A stretch of 64,000 bases of DNA from contig CAWHFW010000005.1 of assembly GCA_963828735.1 (NCBI GenBank), positions 1,824,001 through 1,888,000 of the forward strand, given 5' to 3'. The position numbers were made by a program, and so were the translations under genes. Under the pieces are notes generated by a model that did not search any database, had not been told where the DNA came from, and worked only from the letters and a program-made list of their open reading frames with translations. Positions 39,240-57,785 of this stretch are shown piece after piece (the stretch's first letter is position 1; every line of letters begins with the position of its first letter). The stretch is from an uncultured Gemmatimonadales bacterium. Its GTDB lineage: Bacteria; Gemmatimonadota; Gemmatimonadetes; Gemmatimonadales; GWC2-71-9.

Positions 39240-40106
39240 ATGGAAACGCGCGAATCGGTGTTCGCCTCGACGAGGCCGATGCTCTTCGCCATAGCCTACC
39301 GGATGCTCGGTAGCGTGATGGATGCCGAAGACCTGGTCCAGGACGCCTGGCTCCGCTGGCAGGAGGCGCCCGAGGTCGAGGTGCGCTCGCCGCGCGCGTA
39401 TCTGACAACCATCGTCACGCGGCTCGCCATCAACCGGCTGCGGGCGGCCCGCACGAAGCGGGAAACGTACGTCGGACCCTGGCTTCCGGAGCCGCTGGTG
39501 ACCCAAGACACTCCCGATGCTGTGGAGCTGGCGGAGTCGCTCTCGATGGCGTTCCTGGTTCTCCTCGAGCGGCTGTCGCCGATCGAGCGTGCGGTGTTCC
39601 TGCTGCACGAGGTGTTCGACTTCGAGTACGCCGAGATCGCGCGGGTGGTGGACAAGACCGAGGCCAACTGCCGGCAGCTCCTCGCGCGGGCGAAGCAGCG
39701 GGTGGGCGCGGCGCGCACCCGCTTCGAGGCCGATCCGGACCAGGCCCGGCGGCTGACCGAGCGCTTCACGGAAGCCTCGGTCGCCGGTGATCTGGACGGC
39801 CTGCTGACGGTGCTGGCGGAAGACATCACCCTGTGGGCGGACGGCGGGGGCAAGGCCAAGGGCGCGGCACTCAAGCCAGTGCACGGCGCGACACCTGTGG
39901 CCCGATTCATCCTCGGCATCATGCGGAATGTGGTTCCGGTGGGAACCGCCTTCCACGCCGCGCGGATCAACGGACAGCCGGGCTTCATCGCCTACCTGAG
40001 CGGCCGGCCGCTGTCCGCGCTCATCTTCGACATCCATGACGGGCGCATTCACACGATCTACGCCGTCGGCAACCCCGACAAACTGCAGGCCCTCCCGGCG
40101 TCCTAG
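39240..40106 (+). CDS. sigJ: ECF41/SigJ RNA polymerase sigma factor with SnoaL-like C-terminal extension
   Basis: AYRMLGS, YVGPWLPEP, ADGGGK, INGQPG and NPDKL signatures. Confidence 0.92.
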   Translation: METRESVFASTRPMLFAIAYRMLGSVMDAEDLVQDAWLRWQEAPEVEVRSPRAYLTTIVTRLAINRLRAARTKRETYVGPWLPEPLVTQDTPDAVELAESLSMAFLVLLERLSPIERAVFLLHEVFDFEYAEIARVVDKTEANCRQLLARAKQRVGAARTRFEADPDQARRLTERFTEASVAGDLDGLLTVLAEDITLWADGGGKAKGAALKPVHGATPVARFILGIMRNVVPVGTAFHAARINGQPGFIAYLSGRPLSALIFDIHDGRIHTIYAVGNPDKLQALPAS

Positions 40107-40114
40107 CTCCCCGC

Positions 40115-40141
40115 TGTCACAAACCGGCCGTCCACGTTGTC
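40115..40141 (+). promoter_or_regulatory. Second ECF41-type promoter TGTCACA-N16-TGTC, upstream of the oxidoreductase
   Basis: Shares TGTCACAAACCG and identical spacing with the site at 39201. Confidence 0.75.
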
Positions 40142-40171
40142 ATGATCGTGGTGATGCTTCGCAGCCACGAG

Positions 40172-40234
40172 GCGTCCCGAGCGAGGCGAAGGAGCCATGC
40201 GCAGGGCACGCCCCTTCGCTTCGCTGAGAATGAC
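40172..40234. repeat. REP-like palindromic element (degenerate GTCATxCTxAGCGAAGCGAAGG type)
   Basis: Arms GAGCGAGGCGAAGG and CCTTCGCTTCGCTGAGAATGAC form an imperfect hairpin; the reverse frame reads VILSEAK. Confidence 0.6.
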
Positions 40235-40326
40235 TTCGCAAGGAGGGAAAGCCAGTGTCGGTGGACTCTTATCTCGCTCGTTCCGCACATCCCTCACCAT
40301 TCGCCGATCGTGGCGGGGTGCGAACG

Positions 40327-41001
40327 TTGAAGCTCACGATCTTCGGCGCGACCGGAGGCATCGGCGGTCAGCTCCTCGAGCAGGCGGTCGCCGCGGGTTA
40401 CGAGGTCACCGCCGTCGTGCGCGACCCGAGCAGCCTCGCGCCGAGCCGGAACGGCGTGCGGGTCGTCACGGCCGATCTGGCGGAGGCGGAGCCGGGAGTC
40501 CTCGAGTCGGCCGTGCGCGGCGCGGATGCGGTGCTGTCCGGCGTGGGACCGAGGGCGATGACGAAGGCCGGTGTGGCGGAGCAGGGGACGCGGGCGATCG
40601 TCCACGCGATGGACGCGACCGGCGCCCGGCGGCTCGTCGTGGTCAGCGCGGCGCCGATCTCGACGATGCCATCGCCGCGGCGGCCGCATCCGCCACGCCG
40701 CGATCCGGGTGAGGGGTTCTTCATGCGCACCATGCTCACCCCGTTCGCCCATGCCGTGATGCGCGAGCGGTACGCCGACCTGGCTCAGATGGAGGACGCG
40801 CTACGGGAGAGCGACCTGGACTGGACGATCTTCCGGCCACCGCGGCTCACGAATGGACGGCTGACCGGCTCGTACCGGACGGCGCTCGGGAGGAACCTGC
40901 GAGGAGGCCTGGTCGTCTCGCGGGCGGACGTCGCGCACGCGATGCTGGCCGCGGTGGGCCAGGCCGACACGATCAGACGCGAGGTGGGGATCGCCCGCTG
41001 A
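40327..41001 (+). CDS. NAD(P)H-binding oxidoreductase (atypical SDR, biliverdin/flavin reductase-like)
   Basis: IFGATGGIG, WTIFRPPRL and SRADVA; start is TTG at 40327 or GTG at 40318. Confidence 0.88.
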   Translation: MKLTIFGATGGIGGQLLEQAVAAGYEVTAVVRDPSSLAPSRNGVRVVTADLAEAEPGVLESAVRGADAVLSGVGPRAMTKAGVAEQGTRAIVHAMDATGARRLVVVSAAPISTMPSPRRPHPPRRDPGEGFFMRTMLTPFAHAVMRERYADLAQMEDALRESDLDWTIFRPPRLTNGRLTGSYRTALGRNLRGGLVVSRADVAHAMLAAVGQADTIRREVGIAR

Positions 41002-41135
41002 TCGCTGACCGCGGTCGCAGGGCGTTCAGCTCGCCCGTCTCACGCGCACGGGCCGGGAATACGATGGAACCTGCGCCGTCGGGTTCTGCAACGACCGGCG
41101 ACGGAAGGCGCGTCACCTCAGGGTGCATGCCGGGC

Positions 41136-42487
41136 TCAGGGAAACGGCCGCGGCCTCGGCTCGGGCCATGGCCAGGGATCCACATCGCTGTCCCGTCCCG
41201 CCACGCCGCGGATCGCCGCGGCACGCACCTCCGGGTCCTTCGACTCGAGCAGCTCCGTGAGCCGCTCGCTCCGCTCGCCCGAATGGATCAGCGCCCGCAC
41301 CTGCGCCTTCCGCGCGTCCGCGTCCTGCTCCTTGGCGAGCGCGGCGCGGAGGGCCGGGATGGCGGCCGCCGTCGCCGATCTCCGAGAGCGCCCACGCCGC
41401 TCTCGTGCGCACGTCGGTGTTCGCGTCGTCGACGGCGGCGATCAGGCCCTTCGGCGCCGAGCTCAGGTCGAACTGCCCCAGCGCCCACGCAGCGGTGCCG
41501 CGCACCTCGGCGTTCTTCTCCATCGCCAGCAGCTCGCCGAGCGCGCCCGCGGCCGATGCGTCGCCGTGCTCGCCGAGGGCCCAGACCGCGGTCTCGCGCA
41601 CGCTGTCGTTCGCGTCGTTCCTCGCCGCGGCGAGGAGCGCGTCGGCGCCGCGCTTCGTGTCCATCTCGCCCAGCGCCCAAGCGCACATCTCTCTTACCTC
41701 GGCGTCCTTGTCGGCACGGAGCGCGGCGGCGAGCGCGTCGGCGGCGTCGGCGGCCTCGAGCTGACCCAGCGCCCACGCGGCCGTGCGCCGCACCTCGGCG
41801 ACGGGATCGGTCTTGAGGATCCGAAGTAGGGCGGGGATGGCGCTGGTCGAGTCGAGGTGGCCCAGCGCGCCGGCAGCGGCCTCGCGCACGAGCGACGAGC
41901 TATCGCCGAGCGCGTCGGTCACCGGATGCACGGCGCGGCCGTCGCTCATGCGGCCAAGGGCCCAGATGGCGTTCGCCTTGGTGCCGGCGGAGGGGTCACG
42001 CACGGCGCGGACGAGGGGATCCACCGCGCTCGGCGTCTCGGCCAGGCCGAGGCCGAGCGCCGCGACGCTCCGCATCGCCGAGTCGGGTGACGCGAGGCGC
42101 TGCAGCAGTCCGGGGCCGACCTCATCCCCGCCCTGCGTGCCGAGCAGCCGCACGGCGATCTCGCGGACGCAGGCGTCGCGCGTGGAGAGGCTCTCGAGCA
42201 GGAAGCGCACGTCGTCGGCGGACATGTCGTAGCGGCGATGGCCGCGCGAATGGCGCGGGAGGCGGTGCGTCGCCGAGCGGCGTCACGGGCGCGTCGCTCG
42301 CGCCGCCGCCCCAGCCGTTGCCTACCGCGTCGGCTGCGAGGCCACAGACCTCGGCGGGCGCACCCTGCGCGGCGGCGATGAGGTCGCGGATGTTGTCGGC
42401 CGCGGCGCTCACGATCGTCGAGCCCCAGGGCTCCTTCCACAGCATGCCGAGAATGGCGAAGAGGGCGAAGCCGGCGTTGCGGAGCAT
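41136..42487 (-). CDS. Exported HEAT-repeat protein with PWPWPEPRPRPFP tail (two +1 frameshifts, near 42250 and 41370)
   Basis: Signal-like N-terminus after a GGAGA RBS; about 10 VRxxA(A/V)WALG repeats; removing 2 nt gives a 449-aa ORF. Confidence 0.8.
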
Positions 42488-42496
42488 AGGGTCTCC

Positions 42497-42516
42497 AGTG
42501 GTGAAATTTCAGCACT
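42497..42516. promoter_or_regulatory. Palindromic operator candidate AGTGGTGAAATTTCAGCACT
   Basis: 20-bp near-perfect palindrome directly upstream of the RBS of the HEAT gene; a second copy lies at 45149. Confidence 0.7.
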
Positions 42517-42573
42517 CATGATCATGCGCCGCCGGCGCCGCGAGACCGACATCGTCACGCGGCGGCCGGCAGA

Positions 42574-44694
42574 CTACTCGCGCTCGTGCTCGTCAGGGAA
42601 CGGTCGAGGCTCGGGGCGGGGCCAGGGCCAGGGTCCGGAGGCGCCGCCGCCCGCGAGCTCGGCGACCGCGGTGGCGCGGACCGCGGTATCGGACGAGGTG
42701 ACCAGCCGCTGGAGGACGTCCACCGCGCGGTCACCCATCGCGCCGAGTGCCCGGATGAGGCCGATCCGCACCTCCGCGTCGGTCTCGCGCTTGTAGGCGG
42801 CCTCGATCGCGGCGGTCGCATCGGAGTCGCCGATGTTGTAGAGCGCCCAGGCGGTCGAGAGGCGGACGTCGCGATCGCGATCGCCGAGGGCGGTCAGCAG
42901 GGCGGCGGGCGCCTTCGACGGCTCGCAGCTTCCGATGGACCACGCGGCCACTTCGCGGGTCTCGGCGTTCGCGTCGGTCAGGAGACCGGCCAGCGCCTCG
43001 ACCGCGCTCGCGTCGCCCACCTCGCCCAGCGCCCAGGTCGCAGTCCTGCGCACACTGGAATCCTTGTCCTGGCGCAGCGCCTTCGTCAGCGCGCCGGCGG
43101 CCGCGGAGCTCTCCTCGGCCTCGGCGAGCGACCACGCGGCCATCTCGCGGACGTCGGCGCTCGCGTCGCCAGCCAGAGCCGCGACCAGCGCGTCGACCGC
43201 GACGCGGATATCGCCGTAGTTATGCAGTCCCCACGCGGCGACGCGACGAACTTCGGCGCTCGAGTCGGTGCGAAGCATCTTCGCCAGCACCTCGGCGCGC
43301 TGGTCGGCGTGCGCCGCCGTGTCGGCCGCGAGCGACCGGAGGGTGCCTGCCGCGTCACGCATGGCCTTGTGCACGGGCGCGACGCTCGTCTGGGCTCTGG
43401 TCAGAGCGTTGCTGGCCTCGCGAAGCGACTCGCGCGTCGGTGCGGACAAGGCGCGAGCGCTGGTGGAGTGAACGATGCCGGTGTCGGGATCGGCGGCGTC
43501 GGGATTGGGATCCACGTCGGCGCCGGGCAGCCCGTCGGCGTGCGACGGCCCCGCCGTCGCCTCGGCGCTCGAATCCGCGGCCAGCCCCTGCACGGTGGGC
43601 TCGGAGATGCGCGCCACCGGCGCGGCCGCGCCGACGACGAGCGCCAGCGCGGCGAGCCCGCCGACCAACGCCGCGGTCTGCGCGCGGCCGAGGCTCCGGC
43701 GGCGGAGCTCCGGGTTGAGGATCGCCAGCATGCGTCCCTCGAACTCACGGCGGTGCGCCATGGCGAGCGCGACGGCGGGCGTGTTGTGATCGCGGACGCA
43801 GGTGACGATGTCGAGCAGGTGCTCCGCGTAGTCGCTCGGCCGGGCGCCGAAGATCAGCGCCAGGTCGTCGCACGCGCGCTCGCTCTCCGCGCGGAGGCGG
43901 CGGGCGGCAGTCCAGACGAGGGGATGGAACCAGTAGAGCGCGCAGGCCACGCGGCCGAGCGTGTGGCCGATGAGGTCCCGCCGGCGCACGTGGCCCAGCT
44001 CGTGGATCAGCACGGCGCTGCGGCGCTCGGCGCTCCACTCGTCGCTTTCGGCGGGGAGCACGATGGTCGAGGAGAGGAGGCCGGCGGCGAACGGCATCTT
44101 CACGTCGTCGCTTCGGAGGAGCCGGGGCGCGGCGTCGAGCCCGAGGCGATCGGCGATCTCGTAGAGCGGCGCCCGCCACGACGGGTCGTCGAGCGGACGC
44201 GCGCGGGCGACGATGCGGCGGACGGACCACGCGCCCCAAGCAAGATGGAGTGCGAGCGCCAGGGCGACGGCGGCCCAGACGGCGGCGAGGACGGTGTGCG
44301 GTGAGCGGTCCAGCGGTGAGCGGGTGGTACGCTCGGGCGCGGCCGCGAGCGGGCCTGCGACCGGCGCGTCGGTCGTTGCCGGGGTGCTGACGGAGGAAGG
44401 CGGTGGGTCTGACACAGACGTTCGGACGTCAGCCTCAGCGAAGCGAAGGTGCGAAGCCTCGGCTCCAGACAGGCCCGCCACTTCCTGCGGCAGCACCGGC
44501 AGCGGCAGCGGTGCCCACGCCGCCACGGCCGGCAGCGCCAGTAGCCCGATCAGCGCCACGAGCCACACGAGATGCCGCGAGCCTGCGGAGGCGCGCTGCA
44601 GGAGGAGCGACGCGGCGAGGGCCACGACGAGCAGGCAGGTCGCCTTGAGCAGCAGAACCAGCGCCGGGAACGCGGACGACAGCGTGATGTCCAT
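42574..44694 (-). CDS. BlaR1/MecR1-type M56 metallopeptidase with C-terminal HEAT repeats and PWPWPRPEPRPFP tail
   Basis: TM helices, HELGH zinc motif, YWFHPLVW and ESERACDD, then a TM helix, a low-complexity linker and HEAT repeats. Confidence 0.92.
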   Translation of the reverse strand: MDITLSSAFPALVLLLKATCLLVVALAASLLLQRASAGSRHLVWLVALIGLLALPAVAAWAPLPLPVLPQEVAGLSGAEASHLRFAEADVRTSVSDPPPSSVSTPATTDAPVAGPLAAAPERTTRSPLDRSPHTVLAAVWAAVALALALHLAWGAWSVRRIVARARPLDDPSWRAPLYEIADRLGLDAAPRLLRSDDVKMPFAAGLLSSTIVLPAESDEWSAERRSAVLIHELGHVRRRDLIGHTLGRVACALYWFHPLVWTAARRLRAESERACDDLALIFGARPSDYAEHLLDIVTCVRDHNTPAVALAMAHRREFEGRMLAILNPELRRRSLGRAQTAALVGGLAALALVVGAAAPVARISEPTVQGLAADSSAEATAGPSHADGLPGADVDPNPDAADPDTGIVHSTSARALSAPTRESLREASNALTRAQTSVAPVHKAMRDAAGTLRSLAADTAAHADQRAEVLAKMLRTDSSAEVRRVAAWGLHNYGDIRVAVDALVAALAGDASADVREMAAWSLAEAEESSAAAGALTKALRQDKDSSVRRTATWALGEVGDASAVEALAGLLTDANAETREVAAWSIGSCEPSKAPAALLTALGDRDRDVRLSTAWALYNIGDSDATAAIEAAYKRETDAEVRIGLIRALGAMGDRAVDVLQRLVTSSDTAVRATAVAELAGGGASGPWPWPRPEPRPFPDEHERE

Positions 44695-44702
44695 GACGTC
44701 CT

Positions 44703-45095
44703 CTACCTCCCGCTCAGCCGCGCGCGCCGGATCTTGTCGCGCAAGCGGGCGAGCTCGGCGTCATCCATGTCGGCGTCCGAGAGCCGGAGGAGGGCGGTGA
44801 CGGCCTGCTCGGTGGACCCGGCGAAGTAGGTGTGGACGACGTGGGCGAGCACGTCGTCGCGGGCCTTGTCGGTCGGCTTCGCGGGGGCGTAGACGTAGCG
44901 CGGGCCGTCCTCCTTGTGCGCGATCAGGCCCTTCTCGCCGAGGATCCGGAGGATGGAGCGGACGGCGGAATAGGTCGGCGGGTCGGGGAGCGCCTGCAGG
45001 ATCTCGGCAACGGTGGACTCGCCGCGGCGGTGGAGGATCTCCATGACCTGGCGCTCGCGGCGGCTCAAGTCTTCGGTGGGTGGGCGCTTGGGCAT
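44703..45095 (-). CDS. BlaI/MecI/CopY family transcriptional repressor
   Basis: LSRRERQVMEIL, TYSAVRSILRILGEKG, RYVYAP and YFAGS. Confidence 0.92.
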   Translation of the reverse strand: MPKRPPTEDLSRRERQVMEILHRRGESTVAEILQALPDPPTYSAVRSILRILGEKGLIAHKEDGPRYVYAPAKPTDKARDDVLAHVVHTYFAGSTEQAVTALLRLSDADMDDAELARLRDKIRRARLSGR

Positions 45096-45148
45096 GGTCG
45101 CTGACCGTCTCGGGACGTTGTGATTCATGGCCGGCAGGGGCCGACTCG

Positions 45149-45184
45149 TGTGCTGATATTTCAACACTCAAGAGGAAATGTCAA
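45149..45184 (-). promoter_or_regulatory. Sigma70-type promoter (TTGACA -35) with palindromic operator over the -10 region
   Basis: Minus strand reads TTGACA tttcctcttg AGTGTTGAAATATCAGCACA. Confidence 0.7.
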
Positions 45185-45325
45185 GAGTCCGAGCGGGAGG
45201 TCTGATCCTTCAATCGAATTTGTGCGAGCTCGCGGATTGTTCTCAAAGCCTTCGCGCACATGGCTCCCACGCGGCCTTCCGTCATGGACTGGAGCGGCAT
45301 GAGACCTGGGCCGGGCCGCGCAGGG

Positions 45326-45811
45326 TCATCGGCTCCGGCCGCCCGGCGGCGTGGGCCGGTCTGCGTCGCGCCGCCGCGGATCGACCACGCGCGTTGGCTC
45401 CGACTGGTCCCGGCGACTCGTCGGCCACGAGATCGGCGCGGGTGGCAACGGCGGCGCGCCCTCGGCAGCTCCGCTGCTCACCGAACCGTGCGCCAGCTCC
45501 CCAGCGGCCTCGACCTCGCGGCTCCAGCGCCAGGTGAGCGCCAGCAGCAGCGGCGGACCCGCCACCCACATGACGAGCGCGACGAGCGACGTGCTGCCGG
45601 ACCACAGCACCTTGGCGTCCTGCGCGATCGTCAGGTGCAGCATCAGGTCCTGCAGGCCGGCGGAAATGGCACCGTGCCCGGGCGGCAGGCGGCTCACCCA
45701 CCATGCGGCGAGGACGGCGGAGCCGAGCTTGACGGCGGCGAGACCGAGCCAGTACGCCGCGTTCAGCAACGCGATGTGAAGCGGCCGGAGCCGCGAGAGT
45801 GACCAGCGCAT
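45326..45811 (-). CDS. Hypothetical membrane protein
   Basis: 2-3 hydrophobic helices; GGAGG RBS before the ATG at 45811. Confidence 0.55.
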   Translation of the reverse strand: MRWSLSRLRPLHIALLNAAYWLGLAAVKLGSAVLAAWWVSRLPPGHGAISAGLQDLMLHLTIAQDAKVLWSGSTSLVALVMWVAGPPLLLALTWRWSREVEAAGELAHGSVSSGAAEGAPPLPPAPISWPTSRRDQSEPTRVVDPRRRDADRPTPPGGRSR

Positions 45812-45957
45812 GGAGCCTCCCTGCATTCTTCAAACCTGTCGCCTTGGGCCAGGCGGGTACGATGCGGCGCCGAAACCTCCAGGCAACATACGAGGCCAGC
45901 CCGCAGGGAGTTCTGCCTATGCCGCTGTCAGGACGCCACGAGCGCCGCCCGACACCA

Positions 45958-47637
45958 TCAACGGGTGCCCGCCGGTCCGATGTCCGACAGATATCGCGTC
46001 AGAGCATCGGTGGACAGCGGCTGCCCAGTGGCGCGCCGAATCTTCTCCGGCCACGGGATCGACGCCCCCGGCGCGTAGAAATGCTGGGTAAGCCACCCCG
46101 CCACTCGCGGCTCCTGTGTGAGATCCTCGACCCCGAACTGCTTTCGCATCGCCTCGCGGAGCTGGGCGGCGATCATGTCGGCGTACAGGTACGACTGGAA
46201 GTAGAGCGGCGTCGTCGCAAGCATGTCGCGCGTGCCGACGAAGTCGCCCGGCGGGAGATCGACGCCGACGAACCGACGGTAGGTCGCCGCGTACAACGAA
46301 TCGAGATCGGCGCCCGGCCGCTGGTAGTGCGTGACCTCGAAATAGGCGTTGAGCGCGATGGTGCGGCGAAGCCAGAGAAGGAGCTGCATCTTGCCAACGC
46401 GCTCGAGCGCGGCCGCGCGGTCCGCCGGCTGGTGGGCCGCCCGCTCAAGCCAGTGACGGTCATAGGCCAGGTGGCCCAGCGTTTCGGCCAGCCCCTCGCT
46501 GAGTGGGGTCTCATCGCCGCGGAGGAACGCGGCCGGCAGGTCCGGCCGCATGAGCACCGCATTCGCGGCATGGCCGTACTCGTGGAAGAGCGTCGCGTAG
46601 AAATGGGAGCCGTTGAACGGGTTGGTCAGCAGGCGCGCCTCGAACGCCGGTCGAACCGGGAAGGTGACACCGCCGGTCGGCACGTCCCACACCTTGACGT
46701 CGATCGGCAGACTGTCGTACGCGTACCCGATGCCGCGCATCAGATCCCGCAGGCGCGCCAGGCCCTCCGCCTTGGGCCAGGCGTCCGTGCCCGCGGCCTC
46801 CTCCTGGCGGTGCAGCCAGTAGTCGATGTCCCACGGCTCGAGGCGCTCGACGCCGAGATCCCGGCGCGCCCGGTCGAGCAGCGCGAGATACGAGGCGCGC
46901 GTGGACTGCTCGAAGGCGTCCAGGTCCCTGAGGACCTGGCCCGACTCGAGGCTCGAATTGACCAGCCCCGCCGCTGCACCGTTGGCGAAGCCCTCCGACC
47001 GCCCGATCCGATCGTAGAGTCCCATCGTCTTCACCATCGCGGCGCGGGTGTGCGCGGAGACCTGCGGCCGCGCCCGGAAGGCCGCCTCACGGAGCGAGCG
47101 GTCGGCACTGCTGTCGATGAGCCCGGTGAGCGCCGTGACCGTGAGCTGCGTGCCGCGGAACTCGAAGCGGAAGGCGGTCACGGTGTCCTGCAGCGCGGCC
47201 TGCTGGTCCACCAGCGCGAGCGCGAGGCGGGGATCCGCCCGCGAGACCAGGAAGTCGCGATGGTGCAGCTCGAGCCGTCGCGCGAGGGTGCTGTCGGCCA
47301 CCTTGCCGCGCCACCGGTCGATTACGGCAGCGTAGTCGCGCCGGGTCAGCACGTCCGTCACGAGGCGTGCGAAGGGCGCCGCGTAGTGGTGCGCCTCGCC
47401 CTTCCACTGGTAGTAAGCCTCAAGGACGTTCGCCTCGAAGAGCATCAGCTCCTGCGCCTCCAGCTCGTCGAGGAAGCGGCCCAGCTGGGGCTCGGTTCGG
47501 ACGGCTGGCGGCGGCCCGCCGAGGGTCAGCCGGGCCGGCGAGGTCGCGGGAACCTGGGCGGCGACCCGGCCGACCAAGCCGGCCATCGCAAGAAGGGCGC
47601 ACGAGAACGAGAGCCGAAGCGGACGGCTATGGGGCAT
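45958..47637 (-). CDS. Secreted gluzincin metallopeptidase (M3/M2/M32-like)
   Basis: HEYGH plus downstream SEGLAE, PWDIDY and YFQSYLYA; signal peptide. Confidence 0.82.
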   Translation of the reverse strand: MPHSRPLRLSFSCALLAMAGLVGRVAAQVPATSPARLTLGGPPPAVRTEPQLGRFLDELEAQELMLFEANVLEAYYQWKGEAHHYAAPFARLVTDVLTRRDYAAVIDRWRGKVADSTLARRLELHHRDFLVSRADPRLALALVDQQAALQDTVTAFRFEFRGTQLTVTALTGLIDSSADRSLREAAFRARPQVSAHTRAAMVKTMGLYDRIGRSEGFANGAAAGLVNSSLESGQVLRDLDAFEQSTRASYLALLDRARRDLGVERLEPWDIDYWLHRQEEAAGTDAWPKAEGLARLRDLMRGIGYAYDSLPIDVKVWDVPTGGVTFPVRPAFEARLLTNPFNGSHFYATLFHEYGHAANAVLMRPDLPAAFLRGDETPLSEGLAETLGHLAYDRHWLERAAHQPADRAAALERVGKMQLLLWLRRTIALNAYFEVTHYQRPGADLDSLYAATYRRFVGVDLPPGDFVGTRDMLATTPLYFQSYLYADMIAAQLREAMRKQFGVEDLTQEPRVAGWLTQHFYAPGASIPWPEKIRRATGQPLSTDALTRYLSDIGPAGTR

Positions 47638-47766
47638 GAAGGCGCTCTGTGGTCGATGGGGGACTGGTAGTATCACATGCTGACGGACGCCTGTCGAGCG
47701 ACCGGAGGCACCACCTGCACATCACCGCCGCCAGCGCCTGAGCCAATGCCTGTGCACCTCGCACCG

Positions 47767-55225: not shown

Positions 55226-55448
55226 GCGACGGCTCCGGGAGAGAGCTCCGGTGGAGGACCGCGACCCTAAGTAAGCGGGCGGCGAGGGGCCACGCCAGCA
55301 GCGCGGCAGCCGTGCGCCGACGATTCGTAGCCGCGGGCCCCGCGGGGAAACTCCAGTGCGGACGACGACGTAAATTGCCGTGGGAACGCCGCGCGGGCAG
55401 TGCCGCGGCCGCGCCCGTTCCCGCCACCCCGACCACGAGCTGACACGC

Positions 55449-57785
55449 GTGCTCGTACTCCTGATGCTCCTCCAAACGACGGCCTCGGGTCCTCCACCGA
55501 CCCCGGGAGACTCCGGTGTACCCGCGGGTTTGGTCGCGAACGCCGGCGGGCAGGGTCTCGCGGTGGACGGTAAAGGCTCGCCCACGGCCGCCATTCCGCG
55601 CATCGAGACCGCCGCCGAGGTCCGCGTGGACGGCATCCTCGACGAGCCGGCCTGGCAGCAGGCGACCCGTCTCACCGGCTTCTGGCAGTACCAACCGGTA
55701 GACGGCCGCGCCGCGGAGGAGGCCACGGAGGTGCTGGTCTGGTACGCGCCGGACGCGATCTGGTTCGGCATCGTGGCCCACGACAAGGTGCCGGGCTCGA
55801 TCCGGGCCACCGTGGCCGACCGCGACAACATCGACAACGACGACAACATCGTCCTCGACATCGACACGTTCCACGACCGGCGCCGGGCCTTCCAGTTCGG
55901 CGTGAACCCACTCGGCGTGCAGAGCGACGGGGTGCGGAGCGAGGGCGCGGGCCAGGTGTCGAGCCTCATCCCTGGAAGCGTCGATCTGAATCCCGACTTC
56001 ACCTGGGAGTCCAAAGGCCGGATCACCAGCCAGGGGTACACGGTGGAGATCCGCATCCCGTTCAAGAGTCTGCGCTACCCCGGCGGCGTACAGCAGAGCT
56101 GGGGCTTCAACGTGACGCGCGTCGTGCAGCGCACCGGCTACACCGATACCTGGACCGACGTGCGCCGCGCGAGTGCCAGCTTCATCGGCCAGGAGGGGGC
56201 GATCGGGGGTCTCCACGACCTGAAGCGGGGCGTCGCCGTCGAGGCCCAGCCGTTCGTGACCGCCACCGCCAACGGCGCTCGCGACGACGCCACCGGCAGC
56301 TTCGAGCGAGACGACGTCAATCCCGACGCGGGCCTCAACTTCCGGCTCGGCTTCACCAGCTACTCGCTCGACGCGACCATCAACCCCGACTTCAGCCAGG
56401 TGGAGAGCGACGCGGGGCAGGTGACCGTGAACGAGCGCTTCGCCCTGTTCTATCCCGAGAAGCGGCCGTTCTTCCTCGAGGGGATCGAGCTGTTCGGGAC
56501 GCCGAACACCCTGGTCTACACCCGCCGGATCGTGGACCCGAAGGCCGGCGCCAAGTTCACCGGGAAGTTCGGCCAGCTCGGCGTCGCCTACCTCGCCGCC
56601 GTGGACCAGACCGAGGCTGGCGACGCCTGGTTCAACATCGCCCGGCTCCGGCGCGACTTCGGCCGCAACTCGATCGCGGGCGTCACCTTCGCCAACCGCG
56701 ACCAGGGCGACCTGCACAACCGGGTGCTCGCCGGCGACTTCCGCTACGTATGGGGACTCTACTATGCCCAGGCCCAGCTCGGCGGCTCCTACACCAGTGA
56801 TGCGGCCGGCAGCCGCACCGCGCCCATCTGGCAGGCCGAATGGGACCGCACGGGCCGCTCGTGGGGCTTCAACTATCTATTGAAGGGCCTGGGGAACGGG
56901 TTCGACGACCAGGCCGGCTTCGTCAATCGGCTCCGGAGCAACGTCGTCAACGGCCACTTCTTCAACCGGCTCAGCGCCTACGGCGCCCGCGGCGCGGTGT
57001 TCGAGAATCTCAACGTGTTCTTTGGTCCGGACCGCACGTGGGCCTACGACCAGTTCGGGTTCAAACCAGCGCTCGAGGGGTTCGACCAGGTGGACGCCAC
57101 GGTCCAGCTCCGCGGCGGCTGGGAGCTGAATGGCCACGTCCAGCGCGATTTCGTGGACTTCCAGGACTCGACCTACACCGGCTACACGGTCGGAAGCGCC
57201 GGCGGCCCGGTCTACCAGCCGGCCGAGGACTTCTCCGGCTTCTGGTGGCAGACGCAGGTGACCACGCCGACCTGGCAGCAGTTCGGCGGCTTCCTGCAGT
57301 ATCGGAACGGGCGGGCGGCGATCTTCCAGGAAGGCGGAACCGGCAACTATTGGCAGCTCACCGGCGAGCTCGACTTCCGGCCGGTGTCCACGGTGCGGAT
57401 GGCGCTCACGGGGATCGTGTTCCGGCTCGACCGGCTCGACGGCCGCGAGTTCGCGCGCTCCACCATCCCACGTCTCAAGATCGAGTACCAACCCAGGCGC
57501 GAGCTGTTCTTCCGGGCGATCGGCGAATACCGCTCCGACCACACGGCGGCGCTGGAGGACCCGGTGACGGGGGCGCCGCTCTTCATCGGCGGGGTGGCGC
57601 AGCCGGCCGCCGAGTTCAACGGGATGCGCGTGGACCTTCTCGCCTCGTTCGAACCGACGCCGGGGACGGTGGCGTTCCTCGGCTACGGCAGCTCGCTCGA
57701 GACCGACGAGGCGTTCAACTGGTCGCGGCTCTCGCGAACCACCGACGGGTTCTTCGTGAAGCTGGCGTACCAGATCCGGCGGTAG
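55449..57785 (+). CDS. DUF5916 / CBM9-like outer membrane beta-barrel protein; start uncertain
   Basis: VDGILDEPAW, EIRIPFKSLRY, INPDFSQVESD and PEKRPFFLE; C-terminal FFVKLAY strand. Confidence 0.85.
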   Translation: MLVLLMLLQTTASGPPPTPGDSGVPAGLVANAGGQGLAVDGKGSPTAAIPRIETAAEVRVDGILDEPAWQQATRLTGFWQYQPVDGRAAEEATEVLVWYAPDAIWFGIVAHDKVPGSIRATVADRDNIDNDDNIVLDIDTFHDRRRAFQFGVNPLGVQSDGVRSEGAGQVSSLIPGSVDLNPDFTWESKGRITSQGYTVEIRIPFKSLRYPGGVQQSWGFNVTRVVQRTGYTDTWTDVRRASASFIGQEGAIGGLHDLKRGVAVEAQPFVTATANGARDDATGSFERDDVNPDAGLNFRLGFTSYSLDATINPDFSQVESDAGQVTVNERFALFYPEKRPFFLEGIELFGTPNTLVYTRRIVDPKAGAKFTGKFGQLGVAYLAAVDQTEAGDAWFNIARLRRDFGRNSIAGVTFANRDQGDLHNRVLAGDFRYVWGLYYAQAQLGGSYTSDAAGSRTAPIWQAEWDRTGRSWGFNYLLKGLGNGFDDQAGFVNRLRSNVVNGHFFNRLSAYGARGAVFENLNVFFGPDRTWAYDQFGFKPALEGFDQVDATVQLRGGWELNGHVQRDFVDFQDSTYTGYTVGSAGGPVYQPAEDFSGFWWQTQVTTPTWQQFGGFLQYRNGRAAIFQEGGTGNYWQLTGELDFRPVSTVRMALTGIVFRLDRLDGREFARSTIPRLKIEYQPRRELFFRAIGEYRSDHTAALEDPVTGAPLFIGGVAQPAAEFNGMRVDLLASFEPTPGTVAFLGYGSSLETDEAFNWSRLSRTTDGFFVKLAYQIRR

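Follow-up and report, generated by a model that had tools for sequence, protein, structure and literature searches.

Genes and features of the locus

We analysed a 64,000-nucleotide window (G000:C5:1824001-1888000) of the 4.78 Mb genome of an uncultured Gemmatimonadales bacterium, which carries on its minus strand a three-gene module consisting of blaI (45095-44703), a gene for an M56 zinc protease joined to a HEAT solenoid (M56-HEAT, hereafter the sensor; 44694-42574), and a gene for a second HEAT protein, here called gene 3 (42487-41136). An initial annotation had proposed an undescribed envelope-sensing system in which gene 3, a copy of the outer domain of the sensor, is the regulated product. 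The module is a variant of BlaI/BlaR1-type signalling, and its features are as follows (positions in the window).

45179-45184 (-): TTGACA, -35-like hexamer of the blaI promoter, read from the sequence; TTGAC stands ahead of the operator in many relatives
45151-45166 (unstranded): operator 1, palindrome TGTTGAAATATCAGCA, overlapping the probable -10 region
44703-45095 (-): BlaI/MecI/CopY-family repressor, 130 amino acids
42574-44694 (-): M56 zinc protease-HEAT sensor, 706 amino acids (Pfam, AlphaFold2, Foldseek)
43621-44664 (-): membrane part of the sensor, four predicted helices around a cytoplasmic protease domain
43990-44004 (-): HELGH zinc motif (H231, E232, H235)
43867-43881 (-): ERACD motif (E272, D276)
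43759-43770 (-): putative autocleavage loop ALAM, with M312
43309-43614 (-): periplasmic linker, unconserved and probably disordered
42649-43308 (-): HEAT solenoid of the sensor, about seven alphaRep-like repeats, Trp at variable position 26 (model and structure comparison)
42595-42639 (-): Pro/Trp tail of the sensor, SGPWPWPRPEPRPFP
42516-42580 (-): GC-rich hairpin (-35.6 kcal/mol) behind the stop codon of the sensor, here lacking a clear U-run
42499-42514 (unstranded): operator 2, palindrome TGCTGAAATTTCACCA, ahead of gene 3
42273-42487 (-): gene 3, first piece, with GGAG ribosome site, signal-peptide-like start, the first half of the cap, and Cys48 (42344-42346)
41369-42272 (-): gene 3, middle piece, with the second cap cysteine (42169-42171) and most HEAT repeats
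41136-41368 (-): gene 3, last piece, with the final repeats, tail VDPWPWPEPRPRPFP and stop (41136-41138)

The repressor scored 83.7 bits against PF03965 (cut-off 22.6), in line with the BlaI type first assigned to it, and its relatives start at the same Met. It contains no cysteine and reached 36 bits against the CopY equivalog model, whose cut-off is 122. In the sensor, PF05569 covers residues 18-323 and HEAT_2 scored above its cut-off; the HEAT_2 scores in the HEAT proteins of the module were 107.6 and 169.8 bits, and the 31-residue helical repeat fold was found by Foldseek. The AlphaFold2 model of the sensor (mean predicted local distance difference test score, pLDDT, 79.4) matched alphaRep proteins as well as the BlaR1 structures 8EXT (E 1.1e-5) and 8EXQ. 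Of 58 full-length homologues, all but the tail-less L049, L051 and L119 and the near-duplicate L105 were aligned with the protein of the window, and H231, E232, H235, E272, D276, Y289 and R321 proved invariant in all 55 sequences (54 homologues and the window protein). The HELGH and ExxCD motifs are intact, as first noted, and correspond to the gluzincin motifs HEXXH and EXXXD of BlaR1/MecR1. M312, conserved in at least 90% of the sequences, pairs with the autocleavage residue F284 of BlaR1 (8EXP) in a weak phmmer alignment (E 0.25), and R321 lies at the distance expected for the equivalent of BlaR1 Arg294.

Family-mean hydropathy predicted helices at residues 11-29, 42-60, 135-153, and 340-358, with Lys and Arg enriched after transmembrane helix (TM) 1, after TM3, and before TM4. 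Because four helices with this pattern of basic residues correspond to the N-out/C-out arrangement of BlaR1, the protease is predicted to be cytoplasmic and the HEAT domain periplasmic. Both HEAT domains thus face outward by prediction, on hydropathy and basic-residue bias in the sensor and on a signal-like start in gene 3. Extracellular loop 1 (EL1) is unconserved in the sensor family (conservation 0.23, span 54-110 residues), and so is the linker between TM4 and the solenoid (0.22, 55-174 residues, pLDDT <50); rigid coupling as in BlaR1 is therefore not to be assumed. An xxWALG-type motif is clear in five sensor repeats and in five repeats of the gene-3 middle piece. In the tail-bearing subfamily a conserved Trp occupies alphaRep position 26 in 76% of 122 sensor repeats and in 72% of 229 repeats of gene 3; among the other HEAT proteins that this genome encodes, only 1 of 13 repeats has it. 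Position 26 is a variable position on the concave face of alphaReps (PMC3754942, PMC4613692).

Gene 3 encodes an exported HEAT paralogue of the sensor that runs from the ATG at 42487 through three frames. Its description as a signal-peptide protein made almost entirely of HEAT repeats stood as to the signal-like start and the repeats; the gene is, however, not one open frame, and an approximately 85-residue family-specific cap follows the signal peptide. A basic-then-hydrophobic start was found in 43 of 51 gene-3 homologues with a ribosome site, compared with 11 of 380 internal windows by the same heuristic, and export of the product is predicted accordingly from sequence; 5 of 56 homologues had no such start. 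In L114 (4100) and L117 (6973), the first ATG of the gene-3 homologue overlaps the operator and the usual leader is absent, so that the start is uncertain. The first piece of gene 3 matched the cap profile at E 2.7e-12, and C48 and C105 of the cap are invariant in 131 sequences (L054, 110 of 120 listed matches, and 20 loci). For folding we used the intact relative L054, which is the same contig as G013:C5. The gene-3 model had a pLDDT of 88.6 and a TM-score of 0.91 by target length to alphaRep 6BZX (root-mean-square deviation 2.2 A, Foldseek).

Sensor and gene 3 both end in PWPWP-x-PRPFP, the shared C-terminal tail already recognized in the initial annotation. No region of either protein is better conserved (0.80 in the sensor, a value from tail-bearing homologues selected as such, and 0.87 in gene 3). 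A narrow pattern, back-translated from the sensor-type tail, had 41 exact matches in metagenome contigs; every one of them closes a protein of the HEAT sensor/gene-3 family, none of them another protein type, and no other convincing tail carrier was seen in this genome. Gene 3 had been described as a copy of the sensor domain. It is, by sequence comparison, a paralogue, but an old one that is longer and has its own cap. Recent gene conversion between the two was considered and not seen: their DNA is 67% alike over the best 171 bases, and in a quick tree of the last 150 residues sensors cluster with sensors, with no supported same-locus pairs.

The three frames of gene 3 result from two +1 frameshifts, near 42272 and 41368. 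We compared contigs from 4 of 20 listed sequencing runs over the gene. At 41368, near-identical contigs X5 and X7 have one base fewer and X1 has 14 extra bases, all of which restore the frame; at 42272, one X7 contig, of depth 4.9, has one base fewer and restores the frame. As an aside, the extra bases of X1 at 41367-41368 are a short in-frame duplication, and strains differ at this spot. We regard the frameshifts as assembly errors with considerable confidence, tempered because two shifts per 1.35 kb exceed the assembly background of 4 frameshifted genes among 84 compared with same-genus proteins (approximately 89 kb; 173 of 339 open reading frames passed a composition filter, and 6 further rows with in-frame stops were not counted as shifts). 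The gene may instead be truly broken in this strain, so that the module is decaying here though intact in relatives, a view compatible with any mechanism. This shift density and the single shallow contig at 42272 speak for a pseudogene. The frame-restoring contigs, the +1 sense of both shifts, which two background shifts share, the intact state of both operators, and similar breaks on long contigs of other assemblies (L052, L108, L205, L206) speak against it, and we consider it improbable.

Conservation, operator and regulon

Conservation and synteny were assessed in the best 80 of 528 confirmed loci; the named relatives are almost all metagenome-assembled genomes of Gemmatimonadota, and the loci are kin and not independent. 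The third gene proved syntenic: it lies next to the sensor in 56 of 57 informative loci (those in which the sensor end is complete and 800 or more bases follow it), and in the exception, L078, it is still present after an inserted proline-iminopeptidase-like hydrolase. Reciprocally, when 70 of 125 cap match rows were examined (the 30 best and 40 hand-picked on long contigs), a HEAT sensor lay upstream in 48 of 50 strong and 16 of 20 weaker matches. Two subfamilies, B and C, were defined from the weaker matches, with labels assigned after viewing. The cap profile matches 105 of 401 genomes of the phylum Gemmatimonadota. M56-HEAT clusters also occur with Acidobacteriota as the commonest taxon. 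A hairpin with a T-rich run follows the sensor in 34 of 50 relatives. An apparent 1244-residue sensor/gene-3 fusion (P0178) was rejected as natural and is taken to be a lost stop, since its frame runs through the intergenic operator.

A 16-bp palindrome, TGYTGA-W4-TCAVCA, often doubled, is present at 50 of 56 gene-3 promoters and 64 of 69 blaI promoters, and 174 of 176 strict matches in 713 kb (80 loci) sit at one or the other. In the whole genome, operators 1 and 2 are the top-scoring and second-best sites (29.5 and 25.8); the third site scored 21.4 with no promoter context visible, and column-shuffled controls gave 0-1 sites above 20. The palindrome common to the two promoters, seen from the start, is thus far beyond chance. 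Because this genome has only two strong sites, we take gene 3 to be the regulated output, as had been proposed. From what its family does, BlaI can be inferred to bind the palindromes at its own promoter and at gene 3. Strict scans of 40900-45400 detected no full sigma-70 promoter and no terminator. The operator of subfamily B is TGCTAG-N4-CTAGCA, and the distant subfamily C shows TACANNTGTA-type boxes; TACANNTGTA is the known BlaI/MecI operator core, described as common to CopY (PMC1935004). In G307, one variant palindrome marks blaI, an unlinked gene 3 elsewhere in the genome, and a PadR/ADOP-permease pair.

We scanned for the exact pattern in 56 genomes with a cap or sensor match, including G385, setting aside module promoters (among them split-contig ones and a second gene 3 in G022). 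Five genomes gave no palindrome match, and the reversed pattern gave one match in total. Beyond the module promoters, 17 operator clusters were found. Six precede CBM9/DUF5916 proteins in four genera (one broken and assigned by eye), and six precede hydrolases, namely three PF00144 serine hydrolases of the beta-lactamase fold, which score far below class C beta-lactamase cut-offs, one M1-like peptidase, one prolyl-aminopeptidase-like protein, and one amidohydrolase; two precede unclassified proteins and three other blaI genes. The sites ahead of peptidases and hydrolases in relatives point indirectly to a peptide signal. DUF5916 is directly downstream of gene 3 in 8 of the 80 loci, and none of the five DUF5916 matches in this genome has an operator; a DUF5916-related protein without one lies 10 kb from the module, at 55380-57785 (+).

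The same operator was found in 114 of 401 genomes, many without a cap match (this tally and that of the cap profile include the unpublished genomes G003 or G087, on which no other result depends). Of 20 regions taken from operator-bearing genomes, 11 contain blaI, mostly beside an M56 gene with a non-HEAT ectodomain. The region L349:602-6744 (G135) holds blaI, M56, operator, a small exported protein, and DUF5916; the small protein resembles the end of the neighbouring M56 protein (31% identity across 58 residues, E 1e-7), and on this sequence likeness L349 is the same design with another ectodomain. The operator also stands ahead of six-bladed propeller genes in L318, L319, L346, L347, L348, L350 and L353, and some M56 proteins of the clade end in such a propeller; a candidate match between a propeller ectodomain and an operator-preceded propeller reached only E 0.03 and was not accepted.

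Several further arrangements were noted. This genome has a second BlaI/M56-HEAT pair (L043:4023-7169; G000:C5:1354022-1357168), which is tail-less and is followed by an exported cytochrome P460 gene (PF16694) rather than a capped HEAT gene. In L032 (3815-6696), L064, L092 and L121 the module is immediately preceded by a second BlaI/M56 pair, whose ectodomain is unclassified. Capped HEAT proteins occur in L226, L227 and L234 with neither blaI nor M56 nearby and with no palindrome noticed, and in L220 the capped HEAT gene is unlinked and has B-type palindromes. Among the 80 loci, there is no conserved fourth module gene and the flanks are variable. In the window, a small membrane protein without a Pfam match (45326-45826, -) and an exported M3/M32-like metallopeptidase (45958-47676, -) lie upstream of blaI; neither has an operator, and neither was seen as a conserved neighbour. 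Two ordinary genes (39240-41001, +), one for an NAD(P)-binding protein and one for an extracytoplasmic function (ECF) sigma factor that bears a SnoaL-like tail, converge on the end of gene 3.

Proposed mechanism and alternatives

We favour the reading that the module is a BlaI/BlaR1-type switch for a periplasmic peptide or protein signal. A BlaI dimer would occupy TGYTGA-W4-TCAVCA both in front of blaI and in front of gene 3, and the M56 protein is predicted to cross the inner membrane four times, with the protease inside and the HEAT solenoid outside on a flexible linker. An extended peptide would bind the concave, Trp-lined, mildly acidic face of the solenoid, and in the tail-bearing subfamily the Pro/Trp/Arg tail could act as a tethered mimic in its own or a partner groove, the role that EL1 has in BlaR1. 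By analogy with BlaR1, the ligand would displace the tail, the partner or oligomer state would shift, the autocleavage loop would leave the active site, and BlaI would be cut. Gene 3 would then be induced, and its exported, probably disulphide-capped product, whose groove has the chemistry of the sensor groove, may bind the ligand, the sensor or both and damp the response; some lineages would add CBM9/DUF5916 proteins and exported peptidases, a regulon assigned by motif. The synteny, the operator data, the invariant catalytic residues and cap cysteines, the signal-like starts, the position-26 Trp (which sensor and gene 3 have lost together in subfamily C), the high conservation of the tail beside an unconserved EL1, and the hydrolases among the extra targets speak for the scheme. 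It may be likened to importin-alpha autoinhibition, to CpxP, to RsiV, and to proline-rich antimicrobial peptides. The first two steps together with the induction of gene 3 are very probable, and the ligand is somewhat more apt to be a peptide or protein than anything else. A tail that serves as ligand mimic is a tentative idea that we doubt rather than expect to hold, and the scheme as a whole we put slightly below an even chance.

The complex prediction suggested in the initial annotation gave weak support for a sensor/gene-3 complex, and it is what the decoy, sponge or feedback role proposed there for gene 3 may draw on. With gene 3 residues 28-447 and the sensor HEAT domain 450-687, both of L054, and with our own alignments, the complex scored 0.32 against 0.00 for the best of three controls; runs agreed in at least 72% of contacts, and the partner pLDDT was at least 81. 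Solved complexes attained this mark in 116 of 157 cases and mismatched pairs in 2 of 215; at <=0.60, however, only 18 of the 157 attained it, along with both mismatches.

Several observations weigh against the favoured scheme. Because solved alphaRep-alphaRep pairs exist (8AW4, 4JW2), model memory may contribute to the complex score, which may reflect likeness to them. The tails have an AlphaFold2 pLDDT of approximately 60 in both proteins, so neither is confidently docked. The flexible linker of 55-174 residues makes BlaR1-style rigid coupling unlikely, and the replacement proposed above is a guess. The M1 and prolyl-aminopeptidase labels lie below curated cut-offs, the kin are not independent, and CBM9/DUF5916 as the commonest extra target suggests a glycan as readily as a peptide. 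By their surfaces alphaReps are suited to folded proteins that present large patches, and the bGFP-A/EGFP complex makes little use of position 26 (PMC4613692). Subfamily B is mostly tail-less yet keeps the Trp ladder, subfamily C has no tail in either protein and keeps the three-gene layout, and L119 and L213 have lost the tail from the sensor only, with the layout kept. Since tail-less subfamilies keep the layout, the core of the module, as read from sequence, is repressor, protease-HEAT protein, and capped exported HEAT protein, and the tail is an add-on.

Three other explanations were considered. In nutrient scavenging, the sensor would detect a piece of a polymer, be it glycan, glycopeptide, or peptide; gene 3 would bind it in the periplasm, and the substrate would be taken up and degraded by hydrolases and CBM9/DUF5916 proteins. 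The six CBM9/DUF5916 sites in four genera, the eight loci with such a gene directly 3' of gene 3, and the presence of DUF5916 in the same-operator module with another ectodomain (L349) all fit this account, and sugars can stack on rows of Trp. It sits less well with the lack of an operator at all five DUF5916 matches in this genome, with the lack of any glycoside hydrolase among the 17 extra targets, and with DUF5916 itself, a domain of unknown function without a sequence match in the PDB; we hold scavenging to be rather unlikely, if the strongest of these competitors. Envelope folding stress would have the solenoids bind unfolded or stalled periplasmic proteins, with gene 3 acting as chaperone and brake in the manner of CpxP/Spy and the Trp/Arg tail serving as a membrane-interface anchor or sorting signal rather than a mimic. 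An exported, autoregulated partner, the weakly predicted complex, the general protein binding of alphaRep folds, and the undocked tails agree with it; however, no DegP- or Skp-type protease or chaperone gene is among the 17 extra targets, and patchy presence in 105 of 401 genomes fits a specific signal better than housekeeping, which leaves this explanation unlikely. A third possibility, that gene 3 senses redox state or metals with its two cysteines and serves the protease as a co-receptor acting before it, could draw on the invariance of C48 and C105, the cap kept in tail-less subfamilies, and the TACANNTGTA box that subfamily C has in common with BlaI/MecI and CopY. The simplest view of two such cysteines in an exported protein is that they form a structural disulphide, the cysteine-free repressor falls far short of the CopY cut-off, and no metal or redox genes are among the extra targets, so that we find this highly improbable.

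Returning to the switch for a peptide or protein signal, a bolder generalization is that a clade of BlaI/M56 switches follows a rule in which a protease with a swappable ectodomain induces an exported free copy of it. The HEAT version would then be a receptor and sponge for proline-rich peptides from plants, animals, or microbes, with tails as mimics and with exported peptidases and DUF5916 as backing. We think this unlikely; if it were true, the function of the DUF5916 protein would become testable. In any case, the operator ties DUF5916 to a regulator. Current understanding of BlaR1-type proteases is confined to the sensing of beta-lactams. In the module the receptor fold is defined, the operator precise and the regulon very small, and the tail is a candidate for a ligand mimic that is built in; what M56 sensors of other signals detect, and how a signal passes along a long flexible linker, thereby become testable. 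The module also gives a handle on how the envelope works in Gemmatimonadota, a soil phylum that has been little studied.

Relation to known systems

CpxA/CpxP and RsiV/sigma-V offer parallels, in which a sensor is held back by a periplasmic partner that is itself induced, or a receptor doubles as a trap for its ligand. Their proteins are unrelated to the module and their output is a kinase or sigma factor, so that they serve as an analogy only. Literature searches for BlaR1, BlaI, or M56 with HEAT repeats or Gemmatimonads, and for PWPWP, found nothing relevant, with most subscription journals and supplements outside their coverage. The description as an undescribed system therefore holds for the literature searched, but the signalling design itself is that of BlaI/BlaR1. 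With alphaRep and HEAT_PBS-like repeats (MTH187 family) the module shares the 31-residue repeat and the fold (PMC3754942, PMC4613692), whereas its solenoids are natural and exported, keep a fixed Trp at position 26, and bear an N-cap with two cysteines and a tail rich in Pro and Trp. The atypical BlaIR systems (PvmSR of Pseudomonas aeruginosa PA14, Rv1845c/Rv1846c, MAB_2414c/2415c) likewise combine M56 and BlaI without a beta-lactam sensor; these are described as lacking any sensor domain, while the module has a defined ectodomain and a paralogous exported target (bioRxiv 10.64898/2026.08.03.742534).

The closest likeness is to BlaI/BlaR1 and MecI/MecR1 of Staphylococcus aureus and Bacillus licheniformis, in which a winged-helix repressor also stands beside a four-helix M56 gluzincin with N-out/C-out topology (in the module, a predicted one) and HEXXH and EXXXD motifs (PMC9834060). 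Autoregulation, a palindromic operator, and a sensor and regulated product of one fold are common to both as well (PMC9834060, PMC1935004). BlaR1 signalling starts when EL1 is displaced from the sensor groove (PMC9834060); in the module EL1 is unconserved and the linker is long and flexible. A HEAT solenoid takes the place of the penicillin-binding domain, and no penicillin-binding sensor domain (SXXK) was found in the sensor, which scored 81 bits against the blaR1_generic cut-off of 400; this agrees with the initial view of the outer domain as a HEAT solenoid. The operator is TGYTGA-W4-TCAVCA instead of the TACANNTGTA core. In the diderm host, the target is an exported HEAT paralogue rather than the beta-lactamase or penicillin-binding protein (PBP) of the bla/mec divergon, and no regulated beta-lactamase or PBP was found in this genome, where strong sites stand only at blaI and gene 3. 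As sensor domain, EL1, operator, and effector all depart from those of BlaR1, the module is not a BlaR1 but a variant built on the same kind of signalling.

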